From Candidatus Dormiibacterota bacterium (GTDB taxonomy: Bacteria; Chloroflexota; Dormibacteria; Aeolococcales; Aeolococcaceae), in the NCBI GenBank assembly GCA_003153215.1, contig PLXL01000061.1, forward strand, positions 1-41,144: DNA of 41,144 nucleotides, written 5' to 3'. How positions within the stretch are numbered: the first letter of the stretch is position 1; every line of letters starts with the position of its first letter. The notes under the pieces are model-generated. The model searched no databases. It was not told the origin of the DNA and worked only from the letters and a program-made list of their open reading frames with translations. Positions 2,623 through 20,402 of this stretch are shown here, in pieces. The translations under genes were made by a program, and so were the position numbers.

Positions 2623-2928
2623 TCAGAGCTCCCTCTCCCCTAGCCCGGCGGCGCAGCCGCGGCGATGCTGGCCCACGGCTCCGCATTCCGGGCAGACCAG
2701 ATGGGCCCAGCAGGCGGGGTCCCCGCCCTCAGCTCGGACATCGGCCTCCGCTCGCTCCGCCATCGCACTGCTGAGGCTGGGCTGAACTGTCTCGGCATCG
2801 AGCGCCCGCTTGATCTCCGGGTAGGCGTCGCTGAGGCAACAGGGGCAGGCTCGGTACCAGCGACGCATGCCTTCGTCGATGACCACTTCCATCGATCGGA
2901 CCTCCTGATGTCCTCTTGCGCTCTTCAT
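2623..2928 (-). CDS. Small Cys-rich hypothetical protein (possible zinc ribbon)
   Basis: 101-aa ORF with CPCC near the N-terminus and CW-x5-CPEC near the C-terminus. The internal start MEVVIDEG at 2892 is more plausible. No family recognised. Confidence 0.4.
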   Translation of the reverse strand: MKSARGHQEVRSMEVVIDEGMRRWYRACPCCLSDAYPEIKRALDAETVQPSLSSAMAERAEADVRAEGGDPACWAHLVCPECGAVGQHRRGCAAGLGEREL

Positions 2929-3061
2929 CCACCATCCCTCCTATCCCTGCGGCACTGCACCCCGTCACTGCTCCGCTCAGCGATCACAGGCTGCCCGGCG
3001 CGCGCCGCGCCGTCGCCCCCGCGGACCGAGGCGACTGCACCGCGGCGGTGGGCCACGTCTA

Positions 3062-3396
3062 TCACAAGGTGTGGTGCCCCGCGATCGTGGCGGTGAGGTA
3101 CGGATCCCGCTGCCACCCCCCTCCGTTCCCGGTCCCTCTCTCGAGATGCAGCCGCACGGCCTTGGCCGCCGCACGGAGATAGTCGGGATTACTGGGCGCG
3201 GTTTCGGCCCGCCACCAGGCGAGCTCCACAAAGTCGATACACTGATCGCGGGTGCCGGCGAACTCCAATCCGCCATCGAAGTCGACGACGCGACACGGGG
3301 CCTCGCCCCCTCCTGCGAGATGCTGCCGTGGCTCCGATGGATGGCCTCTCGCGCCAGCTCTCCCGGCCTCGGCTCGAAGACGTGGTAGCTCTGCAT
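3062..3396 (-). pseudogene. Hypothetical ~110-aa protein split by a frameshift in a G run
   Basis: MQSYHVFEPRPGELAREAIHRSHGSISQEG (frame of ORF 2977..3396) continues as GEAPCRVVDFDGGLEFAGTRDQCIDFVELAWWRAETAPSNPDYL... (frame of ORF 3062..3535). The frames switch at the GGGGG run near 3305-3315. No family recognised. Confidence 0.25.
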
Positions 3397-3665
3397 CGCA
3401 CACGAACCTCATCGAAGCGGAATGGTGGGGGTGGGTGCGATCGGGATCGGCACCGGTGCCAGCTGCCCCGCGGGTCCGAACCTGACCCGTGGGCCACCGC
3501 CTTGTCCTGAAAGGGCTCGCCAGAGGCGGCCCCACGCCGACCGGCGAGGCCGTCGCCGAGGACGCCGCGGCCCTTCGGTACCGGCTTCCTGGAGCCGGGC
3601 CGCGTCGTCACCGAGCACCTGCCGCCTCATCGTGCCCTCTCTGGCAGCCTCATCGCTAGACACGC

Positions 3666-4187
3666 TCAGCCAACCTCCACGTGCACCAGGGATGCCGGAA
3701 TCACCGAGACTCCACCCACCTCGTAGCGGATGTCGCTGCACAGCGCCTTCCCAATGAAACAGTGGTCGCGGGCCGTGCGCGCAGTCCCTGTACTCCTGCT
3801 CCCGGTTCGGCTCCTCTGAGCGGATGGTGGGGTGGACCACGACCTGGGAGAAGCGCGCCCCGGCACCCGGATAGTCACTGACCGTGCCCGTCGCCCGCAA
3901 CATCACCTGCTCGGCCGGGAGCCCGTCGCGCACCAGCAGATGAAGAGGGTGCCGGAGTAGCAGGACGCGACGGCGGAGACCAGAAGCTCCTCCGGACTGC
4001 TGCCGACCCCGCGGCCACCCATGCTCTCCGGTGCCGAGAACACCACCCGCTGCTGGCCGGTGGTGAGGACCCCGGCCCCGGCCCGCTGCGGTCCCCTCCA
4101 GGTCGCCTGCGACTCGAAGGTCAACTGAGGCCATGCTCTGCACCGGGACAACCCCAATGAACCTTTATTGATGGTCACTGCCATCAT
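3666..4187 (-). pseudogene. OsmC/Ohr-family peroxiredoxin-like gene disrupted by two frameshifts
   Basis: Segment 1: ...VVFSAPESMGGRGVGSSPEELLVSAVASCYSGTL (ORF 3903..4187). Segment 2: HLLVRDGLPAEQVMLRATGTVSDYPGAGARFSQVVVHPTI (second frame). Segment 3: ARDHCFIGKALCSDIRYEVGGVSV (ORF 3666..3878). Read in order they give a typical OsmC layout. Confidence 0.6.
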
Positions 4188-4373
4188 AATACCCCTTGCC
4201 TGCGATTGTCGTCAACTCGTTCGGGAGCTTGGATCGTGGTCGCCGCCCGGGCGCGGCTCCTTCTCCCTGTGGTGGCGATCGCCACCCTGGCGGTGGTCCT
4301 CATCGACCTCGCCGCCGTCCTCAGCAGCCTCCTGGTGGGGCGGGGCATCCCCACTCTCAGCGGCGGCTGGGTT

Positions 4374-4526
4374 GTAAACCCTCACCGAAGTGTCAGTGGA
4401 AACCGCACGGTGATGTCAGCGGAAAGCCGCCCGGAAATGTCAGTAGCGTCTGATCCTGAACGCCAGTATGGCGACTACTGACGTTTTGGCTGGTGTTTTC
4501 GTACTGACATTCCCGTGCGGGTTTAC
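4374..4526. repeat. Convergent array of five 23-24-nt iteron-like repeats (three tandem direct, a 32-nt spacer, two inverted)
   Basis: R1 4374-4397 GTAAACCCTCACCGAAGTGTCAGT. R2 4398-4420 GGAAACCGCACGGTGATGTCAGC. R3 4421-4444 GGAAAGCCGCCCGGAAATGTCAGT. R4 4477-4500 and R5 4503-4526 are reverse complements (GAAAACACCAGCCAAAACGTCAGT and GTAAACCCGCACGGGAATGTCAGT). Confidence 0.85.
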
Positions 4527-4638
4527 ACCCACGTCACGGAGAAGCGACGGACCATGCTCCCGAGCGACCGGGTGGCAGGATGTCGCCGTGCAACAAGCGG
4601 GTGACCCGCATGGGCCTCTCGGCCCGGCAGGTGGCGAG

Positions 4639-5112
4639 ATGTCGAAGGTGAGCACAGCTAGGGGTCCCGCAGGTCCACCGGGGCCGTGGCAACTCACCGT
4701 GACTCGGCGGGTGATCTTCGTCGAGGCTGCGGTGTGTGCTCTCCTCTCGGCCTACCTCCTGTGGGGGGCGGTCATCGCACTCTCTCCCGAGAGCCTCTTC
4801 GCCGTCGCCAATGGGGGGACCGGTCCGCAGTTGCTCTTCCTCTGGGGTGGGGGGCTTGCCGCTGCGACGGCCGTGCTCCTCGTGGCTGGCGTGGCACTGT
4901 TCCGCTGGCGGGCGGCGTACGGCGCTGCTGTGGGCATTCAAGGAGCGTTCCTACTCGCAGTCGCGCGCGTGACGGGGGTACACCCGGATGGCACGGCGGC
5001 CTTCATCGCGCTCGTCGCGGTGGTTGTCTTTGCCGCGGAGCTCGCCCTGCTGCTGACGCCAGCGGCCCGCCGGGCGGTCACGTATCGACCAGGGGTGACC
5101 CGGAGATTCTGA
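4639..5112 (+). CDS. Small integral membrane protein (about 4 TM helices), function unknown
   Basis: ATG at 4639 is preceded by AGGTGG. Hydrophobic helices include VIFVEAAVCALLSAYLLWGAVIAL, LLFLWGGGLAAATAVLLVAGVALF and AAFIALVAVVVFAAELALLLT. The N-terminal extension of the 214-aa track ORF is not protein-like. Confidence 0.6.
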   Translation: MSKVSTARGPAGPPGPWQLTVTRRVIFVEAAVCALLSAYLLWGAVIALSPESLFAVANGGTGPQLLFLWGGGLAAATAVLLVAGVALFRWRAAYGAAVGIQGAFLLAVARVTGVHPDGTAAFIALVAVVVFAAELALLLTPAARRAVTYRPGVTRRF

Positions 5113-5261
5113 GGGTCCCCTATCCGCGCGGCCTCGGCGAACGGCTGCCGCATGCGCTGTACGGGCCAGCACGACCCAACTGCGCTAAATTGCAGTTTAG
5201 CTCTGTTATTGACAACCTCGCGTCCCCACCCCCCGCCTATGAGCGGGCGAGCTCCGGTCCT

Positions 5262-5703
5262 TGACCCCGACATGGCGCACTCTCACTGGCCAGCAGACGC
5301 TTCTCTATGAGCCCTCCACTCTCCCTGATTGTCCGCACCGACGACAGGCTTTACCGCGCCTACCTTCTCAAGGAGCAACTCCGACAGGTTTTCCGACCGC
5401 GCGGGCGGGGGCCGTGGCACTCATCCACGACTGGCTCGTCTGTGCCCGCCGCTCTCGCATCCCCGCCTTCGTCAAACTCGTCGCGTCCATCACCGCGCAT
5501 CGTGCCGACATCGAGGCGAGGGTCACCCATGAGCTATCTAACGCCAGAGTCGAGTCCGTCAAGACCAAGCTCCGCTTGCTCACCCGGCTCGCCTTCGGGT
5601 TCCGCTCCGCCGACGCCCTCATCGCTCTGGCCATGCTAAGCCTAGGCGGTCTCTGGGCGCCGCTTCCAGGCCGCTGCTGACCCACGGATGCGTCACAAGA
5701 GCC
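5262..5703 (+). mobile_element. ISL3-family IS remnant (internally deleted, frameshifted transposase 3' part plus right inverted repeat)
   Basis: DDRLYRAYLLKEQLRQVF (frame of 5307) and LIHDWLVCARRSRIPAFVKLVASITAHRADIEARVTHELSNARVESVKTKLRLLTRLAFGFRSADALIALAMLSLGG (frame of 5261) are typical ISL3 C-terminal blocks. The reverse complement of 5681-5703 is GGCTCTTGTGACGCATCCGTGGG, an ISL3-type IR start (GGCTCTT). Confidence 0.7.
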
Positions 5704-5860
5704 GGAAAAACCGAGTACCCAGCAGTCGCTGGCGCTGACGCAGGTCACGCCGTGGAACCCCGTGTCCCTGGCGGCCTACCGATCCTCAGGCATCCGCATT
5801 CACGCGTTCTGAAGTGGGGACCAGGCGAGCCGGGAGGATGTCCTTGCCCACGGCCGTCGG

Positions 5861-6157
5861 CTACCCAACGCCCCCTCCCCGTGTGCGCACGCCGATGCCA
5901 GAGCGAGCACCGCGGGCGAGGGTGAGCTTGAGACCGCTCAACCCTGAAACGAGCCCGAGCGTGGCCGCGTTGGCGGCGATGATGGCCGGGTCGCCACGAC
6001 CGACACCGTAGAAAACCCAGGCCACGATGCCGACGGTGAGGGTGCCGAGGTAGACCCAGCTGATGTCGGCCGCCGACCGAGTCCGGATGGTTCGGAGCAC
6101 CTGGGGCAGCCAGCATGCCGTGGTGAGTGCGCCGGCGACGAAACCCAGTGCCTCCAT
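5861..6157 (-). CDS. SemiSWEET (PQ-loop, three-TM sugar transporter half-unit)
   Basis: 98 aa starting at ATG 6157: MEALGFVAGALTTACWLPQVLRTIRTRSAADISWVYLGTLTVGIVAWVFYGVGRGDPAIIAANAATLGLV... It has the conserved LPQ motif, three TM helices and close resemblance to characterised bacterial SemiSWEETs. Confidence 0.8.
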   Translation of the reverse strand: MEALGFVAGALTTACWLPQVLRTIRTRSAADISWVYLGTLTVGIVAWVFYGVGRGDPAIIAANAATLGLVSGLSGLKLTLARGARSGIGVRTRGGGVG

Positions 6158-6176: not shown

Positions 6177-6785
6177 TCATGGCAGAGTGCAGTGATCCTC
6201 AGATCCGACGAGAAGGTTGCGCAGCCCCGACGTCTTGCCGCAGCGGATGCGGTCCTCGACCCGGGCGTGGGCGCGGTGACGCGCCTCCAGCGCCGCCAGA
6301 TCGGTGTCAGCTTGGTCGGTGATGAACACCTGAAAGCGAAACCCGTCGTGATCGGTGAAGGAGAGCTGAGCGCCGGGATGGGGCCGCTCACGCCGGCAGA
6401 TGGCCCGGCTAGCGGTGGGCCAGGCGCTGAGTCGAGATCGTGCAGCTCGCAGACGGCGGCACCGTCACGGGGGTCGCCGTCCTGGGTGATCGCGGGCACC
6501 CAGGTGTCCGGGGAAACCGCAAGCAGGCACGCGAACTCCCGAGACAGCGCCGCGGTCAGCCCGACGCGGTCGGCCAGCTCAATCAGCAGGTAGCTGCCGG
6601 CGTGGGAAACCACGCCGTCGCCGTCCGTCGTCACCACCGGCCGTGGCCGCTTGGTAGCCTTCACCTTGAAAGGCCCCCTCTTCGGGATTCTCGAGCGTCG
6701 ACAACCCGAGTATCCCTTGTCAGGTGGGGCACTTTCTCCTTCCCGACCAGCGCGCCCGGCTACCTCGGTGAAAGATCGAGGCTAG
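6177..6785 (-). mobile_element. IS1380-family IS remnant (N-terminal ~60 codons fused to an internal fragment; 3' part missing)
   Basis: MKATKRPRPVVTTDGDGVVSHAGSYLLIELADRVGLTAALS starts at 6664. A second frame (about 6360-6180) reads HPGAQLSFTDHDGFRFQVFITDQADTDLAALEARHRAHARVEDRIRCGKTSGLRNL, the classic IS1380 block. The upstream non-coding end runs to 6785. Confidence 0.7.
6754..6785 (+). repeat. 32-nt repeat copy A (outer end of the IS1380 remnant)
   Basis: GCCCGGCTACCTCGGTGAAAGATCGAGGCTAG is the exact reverse complement of 19650-19681. Confidence 0.9.
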
Positions 6786-19649: not shown

Positions 19650-19681
19650 CTAGCCTCGATCTTTCACCGAGGTAGCCGGGC
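19650..19681 (-). repeat. 32-nt repeat copy B (solo IS1380-type end)
   Basis: CTAGCCTCGATCTTTCACCGAGGTAGCCGGGC is the exact reverse complement of 6754-6785. Loose similarity continues about 10 nt inward. It abuts the truncated ATPase gene. Confidence 0.9.
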
Positions 19682-20402
19682 AGCGCCCTGGGGGTCATGA
19701 GCCAGGGGGAGCTCAACTGCCTTGCGCTCAGCCTCTTCCTCCCACGTGCCCGCATGGCGGAGTCGCCCTTCCGGTTCATCGTCATCGACGACCCCGTCCA
19801 GGCCATGGATCCCGTCAAGGTGGAGGGCCTGGCCCGGGTTCTGGGGAACGTGGCCAAGGACCGTCAGGTGGTCGTCCTCACCTACGACGACCGGCTGCCC
19901 CAGGCGGTCCGACGTCTCGACATGGAGGCGACCATCATCGAACTGGTCCGGCGTGAGCAGTCGGTGGTGGAGCTCCGCGCCGCGTTCGACCCGGTCCGCC
20001 GGCACATCGAGGACGCCCTCGCGGTCGCGCAGAGCAAGAATCTCCCCCGGAGACCCACCGTGTCGTCCCTGGATTCTGTCGCCTTGCACTGGAAGCCGCC
20101 GCCCGGGAGGCCTCACCCGCCGCCTCGCCCACGAGGGCAAGCCGTACGAGGAGATCGAGGCAGCGCTGGAGCGTCCGACCACCCTTCTGATGTGGCTGGC
20201 CCTGGCCTTCTTCGAGGACGAGGGCCGGGCCGGGGATGTGATGGCCTACCTCAACCGCCAGTCGCCGGCGGGCGCCGACGCCGTCGCCATCTGCAACCGG
20301 GGGGCCCACAAGGCTGTCACCCGCGAGCAGCAGATGACGACCATTCGCGCCGTCGAGGAGCTCACCGGCAGGATGCGGGAGGGCACCGGTGGCGACCGCT
20401 GA
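19676..20402 (+). pseudogene. C-terminal remnant of an SMC/RecF/ABC-like ATPase (5' part missing, two frameshifts)
   Basis: SQGELNCLALSLFLPRA (signature-like) and FRFIVIDDPVQAMDP (Walker B/D-loop). Frame changes at C runs near 20044-20048 and 20105-20112 restore ...PETHRVVPGFCRLALEAAAREA / LTRRLAHEGKPYEEIEAALERPTTLLMWLALAFFEDEG... ending at TGA 20400-20402. Confidence 0.6.

Follow-up and report, generated by a model that had tools for sequence, protein, structure and literature searches.

Layout and boundaries of the repeat array

The window analysed here is the whole 41,144-nt stretch of contig PLXL01000061.1 (assembly GCA_003153215.1, Candidatus Dormiibacterota bacterium; GC content ~67%, actinobacterial in appearance), and our subject is a short array of five repeats at 4374-4526. 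As the original prediction had pointed out, the array lies upstream of an open reading frame (ORF) for a protein with four transmembrane helices, the 4-TM gene, whose conserved ATG is at 4639. When the repeats were re-derived, they came out with the layout and coordinates that had been described: three copies on the plus strand, R1 (4374-4397), the 23-nt R2 (4398-4420) and R3 (4421-4444), are direct and abut each other and are followed by a 32-nt spacer (4445-4476) and by two copies on the minus strand, R4 (4477-4500) and R5 (4503-4526), with a gap of 2 nt between them. Tandem Repeats Finder reports the direct part as 2.9 copies with a period of 23 at 4376-4444. Each 23-24-bp unit consists of two blocks, TG(T/G)AAA(C/G)C and TGTCAG, with ~9-10 variable bp in between. 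The best pair is formed by the outermost copies R1 and R5 (28-nt arms, 82% complementary), which act as terminal inverted repeats, as had been proposed.

Four of the five copies end in TGTCAG(T/C), the ending previously ascribed to all of them; the exception, R4, ends in CGTCAGT. With its first block decayed, R4 also scores less than the 8 bits needed to be reported by a position weight matrix derived from four of the copies; this matrix gives R5 the highest score in the window and finds no further array copy in the 41 kb. We count R4 as a true copy because its positional counterpart in three of the related elements described below (L010, L059 and L003; L-numbers denote the loci or contigs compared) likewise reads AAAACGTCAGT.

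The array is real and non-random. With up to three mismatches, the 24-nt degenerate consensus matches the 41 kb four times, always inside the array, as against 0.03 matches expected, and a two-site pattern matches twice (0.00 expected). The heptamer TGTCAGY, the clustering of which had been remarked upon, is indeed clustered, with 4 of its 14 occurrences in the window lying within 4391-4509, but the window in its entirety shows no enrichment of it (14 occurrences versus 9.6 +/- 3.6 expected; 14 or more in 15 of 100 shuffles).

If the repeat unit is drawn one base wider on each side, i.e. as 4373-4527, it starts with TGT (at 4373) and ends with ACA (at 4525-4527). The resulting element is 155 bp long, has the tips TGTAAACCC...GGGTTTACA and no coding capacity of its own; that it is non-coding follows from a frame plot in which GC is ~0.55 at all three codon phases. 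As sites of this element, R1, R2 and R3 are termed L1, L2 and L3, R4 is termed end-R2 and R5 is termed end-R1. With the tips included, the two terminal sites extend over 4373-4397 (L1, plus strand, with the TGT tip) and 4503-4527 (end-R1, minus strand, with the ...ACA tip).

Miniature and full-length relatives of the element

Relatives were sought by pattern and by peptide. A strict single-site pattern (GKAAASCCNCMCSGRANTGTCAGT) had 0 matches in genome and metagenome contigs, being so strict that it would miss even L010, the full-length relative described below. A looser two-site pattern found 11 loci in metagenome contigs, three of which are true relatives (L003, L010 and L011), and had 0 matches in viral contigs. 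A genome scan with GTCAGNGGAAA in two copies returned 45 loci, mostly unrelated tandem repeats, and within 8 kb of these there is no L010-type tnsB homologue. Six-frame peptides of the array, compared with 5.8 billion proteins, yielded no further copies.

The three relatives fall into two forms. L003 is a second miniature copy of 166 bp (6521-6686), which lies in another organism and at an unrelated locus, has its sites likewise arranged as 3 + 2 and is 78% identical to the window copy (W in the comparisons that follow). L010 and L011 have the same three-site end, beyond which a long stretch of DNA continues. The two ends of L010 are 2967 bp apart, the three-site end starting at 3110 and the two-site end reaching to 6076. 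Over all 155 aligned nucleotides, W and the joined ends of L010 are 82% identical, and each of the five W sites aligns with its positional counterpart there at 19-22 identities. L1, the terminal site of the three-site end, which in full-length copies is the tnsB-distal one, shares 20 of 24 positions with L1 of L010 and, by eye, 24 of 25 with the distal terminal site of L059, TGTAAACCCTCACCGAAATGTCAGT. L2, the second site, shares 21 of 23 positions with its L010 counterpart and contains the stretch TGTCAGTGGAAACCGCACG, which is invariant across W, L003, L010 and L011; L3, the third, shares 20 of 24. At the two-site, tnsB-proximal end, the terminal site end-R1 agrees at 22 of 24 positions, and the degenerate internal site end-R2 scores 19 against the 25-nt R2 of L010.

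Homology also reaches into the spacer, where W AGCGTCTGATCCTG corresponds to L010 GGCGCCTGGGTTCA and W AACGCCAGTATGGCGACT to L010 GGCGCCAGTATGGCCAACT. Because ~14-16 nt align just inside L3 and ~16-18 nt just inside end-R2, the 32-nt spacer is to be regarded as a deletion scar, at which about 2.8 kb of the L010 interior are absent from W.

Some of the loci that came up in the searches carry other arrays. At L044 (~6560-6640) and L045 (~4060-4150), both from metagenome-assembled genomes (MAGs) of Acidimicrobiales, there are 3-4 abutting sites of the forms TGTGCAGCGACACGG...TGTCAGT and GGAAAACGACA...TGTCAG; they look like ends of the same family on a branch farther removed, and the 8-kb loci showed no transposase. 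In Nocardioides acrostichi (L022, L047, L048 and L058; CGGAAAACTGGCGRCRGGTCAG) and in an Aeromicrobium MAG (L024, L043, L055 and L057; CGGAAACNNGTGACTCGTCAG), several arrays with units of 21-22 nt lie dispersed in the genome. In the Nocardioides arrays the inverted copies come before the direct ones (<<< >>>), i.e. with a polarity opposite to that of the window array, and no L010-type tnsB lies within 8 kb of the Nocardioides or Aeromicrobium arrays.

Genes and end design of the full-length elements

The L010 element encodes three proteins on one strand. The first, at 4465-5946 (minus strand), is a 493-aa DDE transposase with rve (4e-10) and Mu-transpos_C (7e-15) domains, the closest solved relatives of which are TnsB of ShCAST (E = 7e-11) and TnsB of Tn6677. 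The second is a 317-aa ATPase matching AAA_22 (4e-18) and, below threshold, Pfam TniB (16.6 versus 22.4 bits); its Walker A (GPAGTGKT) and Walker B (VIDEAQ) motifs are invariant in 5 homologues, and in a search of PDB sequences it weakly matches MuB and ShTnsC. The third gene, orf3, is conserved across the family with TPG and YVLRAH motifs and has no match in Pfam, NCBIfam or PDB sequences; the idea that it is a degenerate TnsC paralogue was rejected (hhalign probability 0.1%). Neither tnsA, tniQ nor a resolvase was found inside the L010 element (for TniQ on the basis of sequence profiles only), nor was a serine recombinase found within 3110-6076.

Homologues of the transposase form 48 clusters, which are almost all metagenomic. 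Contigs were obtained for six of these (L059; L060-62; L063; L064; L065/66; L068-77) and for a Pseudonocardia plasmid (L067). The pair of tnsB and AAA_22 genes is present in all six clusters and in L067, with rve and Mu-transpos_C found also in L059, L060, L063, L065 and L068, and orf3 is present wherever the contig is complete (L010, L059, L060, L063, L065 and L068). The search for a protein family co-occurring with the repeats, which the original prediction had recommended, thus led to a TnsB-like transposase with an AAA+ ATPase, and its comparison with the multi-site transposase ends of Tn7, Tn402 and Mu, with ~20-nt sites beginning in TGT, is borne out by half-arrays that flank exactly these genes in the relatives.

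The ends vary together with the enzyme. Ten end sets, belonging to transposases that are 42-90% identical, have TGT tips and 2-3 abutting sites per end with a period of 23-25 bp; TGT...ACA tips are seen in W, L003, L010, L059, L060, L063, L064, L065, L067 and L068, and the numbers of sites per end are 3 + 2 in W, L003, L010, L060 and L068 and 2 + 3 in L063. The sequence of the sites drifts as the transposase diverges: with transposases 87-90% identical to that of L010 (L059, L065/66) the inner block reads TGTCAGT, at 79% identity (L064) it reads TGGCAGT, at 56% (L063) CTGGCAC and at 42% (L067) GTGGCAC, and in L060 and L068 (52-55%) TGTCAGT is kept with the other block altered. It is chiefly from this co-occurrence of site and transposase that we take the repeats to be what the TnsB-like enzyme recognizes, and the change of the sites along with the transposase indirectly supports the idea that it would bind them. 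At L065 (1-120), the tnsB gene of an L010-type element is cut short by an array of another kind, with five direct repeats of ~22 nt (GGTGATCGGATTCAACCGAAAC-like), which directly adjoins it and is probably a multi-site end of another transposon that has inserted there.

The anatomy of the ends would in itself also suit an insertion sequence (IS) of the IS21 family, of which the array could be a miniature, with IstA binding L1-L3 and R1-R2 as multiple terminal repeats. IS21 ends are ~55-bp terminal inverted repeats with at least two abutting direct repeats, two conserved blocks ~10 bp apart and a terminal CA (PMC10122671, PMC11208146), and this is the same end anatomy as in the array. The proteins encoded between matching ends point elsewhere: the transposase scores 24 bits on the NCBIfam model transpos_IS21, the cut-off of which is 160, has a Mu-transpos_C domain and finds its solved relatives in TnsB rather than IstA, while the ATPase matches AAA_22 and TniB but not IstB_IS21. 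More generally, the NCBIfam models for IS21, IS481 and IS3 stay far below their cut-offs on the L010 proteins, and we give an IS21 origin hardly any credence.

We rate just as low the idea that the array is a structured RNA, a centromere-like site or a set of plasmid iterons or of integrase arm-type sites. Its abutting units of 23-24 bp and their inverted partners do resemble sets of iterons or operators, and single-strand folding is good (z = -5.6), which is a trivial consequence of inverted repeats. Yet a domain search of the neighbouring ORFs found no Rep, Par or integrase gene near the array, blastn found no plasmid match for 4150-4750, no Rfam match reached the gathering threshold anywhere in the window, and a homologous 4-TM locus (L002, see below) lacks the array. 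In the relatives, moreover, 3 kb of transposition genes come between the half-arrays, an arrangement that would not be foreseen under any of these models. The suggested attP arm sites, plasmid iterons and centromere-like sites are therefore dropped, and so is the label 'iteron-like' under which the array had first been described.

Overall, we consider it very probable that 4373-4527 is a non-autonomous, gene-less miniature of a ~3-kb transposon of the Tn7/Tn552/Mu superfamily, the repeats being putative binding sites of its transposase. We describe the autonomous form as 'TnsBC'-type because it carries tnsB-like and tnsC-like genes and orf3 without tnsA, tniQ or a resolvase. The window copy resembles a miniature inverted-repeat transposable element (MITE) in being 155 bp long and non-coding and in carrying the terminal repeats of an autonomous relative. 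A dispersed MITE-like repeat without a consistent neighbouring gene had been named as the outcome that would speak against the original prediction; half of this applies, since the element is MITE-like, but its full-length relatives have a consistent set of genes.

Flanks, target sites and the origin of the window copy

In every copy the flanks diverge directly outside TGT and ACA, which establishes the tips as the true boundaries of the element. For enzymes such as TnsB, TniA and MuA, 5-bp target-site duplications are the rule. The pairs of bases flanking the elements are TGGGT/CCCAC for W, TAGGG/CGCGG for L003, CTGGG/CCAAG for L010, GCATC/ACTGG for L060 and CATCG/CGTGC for L063. Often the few bases beyond one tip are in part the reverse complement of those beyond the other, e.g. 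in L068, where CCTGG/TGTGA...TCACA/CCAGG is found (slashes marking the tips), and G is frequent just outside TGT.

L068-L077 are ten ENA/Logan contigs that encode an identical 495-aa TnsB (P0013) in the same 3.1-kb element. This element occurs with three left flanks (CCTGG, TCTGC and GTAGT) and two right flanks (CCAGG and CCCGA), in the combinations A+X, A+Y, B+X and C+X. Such mixed flanks could reflect a symmetric target preference, an exchange of flanks by recombination or unresolved replicative transposition—the P0013 element being devoid of a resolvase—or chimeras of the assembly. Several P0013 samples belong to the accession series ERZ272540xx-ERZ272542xx, as does a contig identical to the window (L001, from an ENA metagenome; ERZ27254241, k141_870756).

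Several observations weigh against the derivation of the window copy from such a transposon. No 5-bp direct target-site duplication is present at W, L003, L010, L060, L063 or the P0013 element, even when shifts of the tips by 1-3 nt are allowed; tblastn found no tnsB or tnsC homologue in the 41-kb window; R4 is decayed; the 41 kb contain a single copy; and the full-length relatives are all on short metagenome contigs, some of which are possibly chimeric across the repeat.

Some of these points bear on how the 155-bp form arose. It is possible, though not what we would expect, that the element belongs to the same family but was left behind in situ when a full-length copy lost its interior by deletion, and so is a dead scar that never transposed as a miniature. 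This would be in keeping with the decayed state of the zone, which contains an ISL3 fragment and a frameshifted OsmC-like gene, with the degenerate R4 and with the presence of only one copy in the window; moreover, the inner junctions of W and L003 differ (spacers of 32 versus 43 nt), which independent deletions would explain as well as insertions and deletions in one lineage. On the other hand, both miniatures have nearly the same minimal content, namely the five sites and, inward of them, 14-25 nt on either side, as would be expected under selection for mobilizable ends, and both terminal sites and both tips of the window copy are intact.

Surroundings of the element and the 4-TM locus

On the right of the element, the conserved leader of the 4-TM gene (4528-4640, plus strand) is host DNA outside the element, as an alignment with L002 reveals. 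The 4-TM protein has only two relatives in a large protein set, which are encoded by the window-identical contig L001 and by L002, whose homologue is 73% identical. The DNA homology between the window and L002 begins at CCCACGTCACGGAGAAGCGACGG, with 4528 as the first base past the ...ACA tip, and nothing to the left of it aligns; since the homology starts exactly there, the array ends where host-type sequence begins. By eye, positions 1-40 of L002, which adjoin the 4-TM homologue, resemble a tRNA gene of which the contig end has left only the 3' half; none was called here by ARAGORN, and no tRNA was found in the window, L001 or L002 by tRNA scan. As the window has no tRNA at that place, nothing upstream of 4528 is shared between the two loci.

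On the left, the element is bordered by a short ORF with one transmembrane helix (4206-4372, plus strand), in which the GC content at third codon positions (GC3) is 0.80-0.95 and the coding signal stops at the tip of the element, as seen in the frame plot and the translation. On L001 this ORF was called as an 81-aa gene that continues into the array. It may be a truncated gene.

The location of the array 111 nt upstream of the conserved ATG and the conservation of the leader 4528-4640 with L002 raise the question of whether the host has put the element to later use, as a promoter or operator of the 4-TM gene or as a platform for binding a regulator. We regard this as quite improbable: the L002 homologue has no array upstream, a scan of 4150-4700 for sigma-70-type promoters found no promoter-like site on the plus strand, and the pattern of conservation is that of transposon ends.

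That the wider neighbourhood is a zone of decay had also been recognized before. Just past the 4-TM gene there is a C-terminal fragment of an ISL3-family transposase (5261-5680, plus strand; DDE_Tnp_ISL3, 1e-13), truncated on its 5' side and with a frameshifted upstream part from ~5290. An OsmC-like remnant (3409-4187, minus strand) is split over two frames, with the motif GGRGVGSSPEELL in 3903-4187 and a weak match to Pfam OsmC (16.9 bits). Together with the small overlapping ORFs without family at 2623-3412, it forms a decayed stretch of lower GC3. Farther away, a near-perfect inverted repeat pair of 36-37 nt (GCGCCCGGCTACCTCGGTGAAAGATCGAGGCTAG; 6750-6785 and 19650-19686, 12.9 kb apart) encloses an SDR gene, an opp-type ABC transporter operon (55-60% GC at 10-14 kb) and further genes; its two members may be the ends of a large transposon or two IS remnants.

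A proposed mechanism of end recognition

What follows on protein binding, on the chemistry and on whether the window copy is still mobile is inferred, by analogy with TnsB, MuA and IstA. In Tn7 and Mu, one protomer binds per repeat, and it is through the terminal site that the catalytic subunit comes to lie at the CA-3' end. A similar arrangement is seen in IS21 structures, in which abutting bipartite repeats bind one protomer each and the terminal site sets the catalytic subunit at the CA-3' end (PMC10122671, PMC11208146). In the element described here, each 23-24-bp repeat would likewise be one binding site of the TnsB-like DDE transposase, and the two conserved blocks of a site suggest that one protomer reads it with two DNA-binding modules. 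The three gene-distal and two tnsB-proximal sites would load several protomers and pair the ends, with the terminal ...ACA-3' ends exposed for cleavage and strand transfer, and the AAA+ partner would take care of target capture or delivery. The window copy would move only if the cognate transposase were supplied in trans; being gene-less, and with no tnsB or tnsC in the window, it is at best mobilizable in this way, and given its decayed R4 it may be inert.

Significance and relationship to known systems

For the annotation of this genome, an unexplained repeat array becomes a defined relic of mobile DNA, which marks a breakpoint of rearrangement or synteny beside the 4-TM gene. No new class of system is opened by this: it is a relic of an ordinary kind, from a poorly described family of actinobacterial elements. 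What it does offer is a compact, natural minimal substrate, which packs five sites into 155 bp and belongs to a very small three-gene TnsB/TnsC-type transposon of ~3 kb, and small two-ended relatives of Tn7 and of CRISPR-associated transposons (CASTs) are simple models for end recognition. The missing target duplications and the function of orf3 are the loose ends of interest. In the literature searched, the ~3-kb subfamily and its gene-less derivatives of 155 and 166 bp appear undescribed. A more far-reaching proposal would be that the ~3-kb elements represent an undescribed IS-like family of uncultured Actinomycetota that integrates without duplication, that the 155- and 166-bp forms are natural MITEs of the Tn7/Mu kind and that orf3 encodes a new targeting or regulatory subunit; as part of it, integration might prefer short symmetric, G-rich or palindromic targets, or unresolved replicative events might shuffle the flanks. 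As a whole, we think this proposal unlikely.

Among known systems, the 'TnsBC' elements of Streptomyces come closest. These are Tn7-related elements without tnsA and tniQ and with TGT/ACA ends, of which basal two-ended members reside on plasmids together with a serine recombinase and minimal cyanobacterial forms consist of TnsB, TnsC and one unknown gene; Streptomyces sp. YIM 121038 is cited as carrying telomeric TnsBC elements (Hsieh et al., bioRxiv 10.1101/2024.11.13.623437). The TnsB of L010 shares 35% identity with a plasmid-borne copy of the latter strain and 42% with the Pseudonocardia plasmid copy (L067), which is adjoined by a serine recombinase and has mobF nearby. L010 shares with the TnsBC elements the order of a TnsB-like gene followed by an AAA+ TnsC-like gene, the lack of tnsA and tniQ and the TGT/ACA tips. 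In contrast to them, L010-type elements are only ~3 kb in size, are not telomeric, contain neither serine recombinase nor cargo, have a conserved third gene without detectable family and display no 5-bp duplication, and the window holds just a 155-bp gene-less derivative.

The relationship to Tn7 and CAST is evident from the transposase, whose closest solved homologues are CAST TnsB proteins. Tn7 ends contain several TnsB sites of ~20-22 bp, in unequal numbers at the two ends, and a terminal TGT. L010-type elements, however, lack TnsA, TniQ/TnsD and a CRISPR module, are at least 10 times smaller and show no duplication, and their sites, like those of the array, abut with a strict period of 23-24 bp in both ends. 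Staphylococcal Tn552, with its p480 transposase and p271 ATP-binding protein, has ends with two direct 23-bp transposase sites each. The L010 TnsB is ~27% identical to the products of staphylococcal plasmid genes annotated as 'Mu transposase C-terminal domain-containing protein', which are not confirmed as Tn552 itself; the proteins are much more distant, and Tn552 has in addition a resolvase (BinL), a res site and bla cargo. With identities of 42%, 35% and ~27% to these various copies, the L010 family probably belongs to the known TnsBC/Tn552 kind.

In Tn5053 and Tn402 (tniA-tniB-tniQ-tniR), a DDE transposase with a Mu-type C-terminal domain and an AAA+ partner go along with repeated sites in the terminal repeats, and there are defective derivatives, such as the class 1 integrons, which are non-autonomous and keep only the ends. 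The L010 type shares the pair of proteins, the repeated sites and the occurrence of derivatives reduced to the ends, but its TniB match is sub-threshold, and no TniQ, TniR or resolvase was detected inside. Abutting bipartite repeats and the terminal CA are shared with IS21, the proteins of which, IstA and IstB, are not those of L010. Finally, the window copy is like a MITE in its small size, in being non-coding, in having the terminal repeats of an autonomous relative and in that miniatures occur at two unrelated loci (W and L003), and it differs from one by the lack of a target-site duplication and by ends that are not simple inverted repeats but multi-site and asymmetric (3 + 2).

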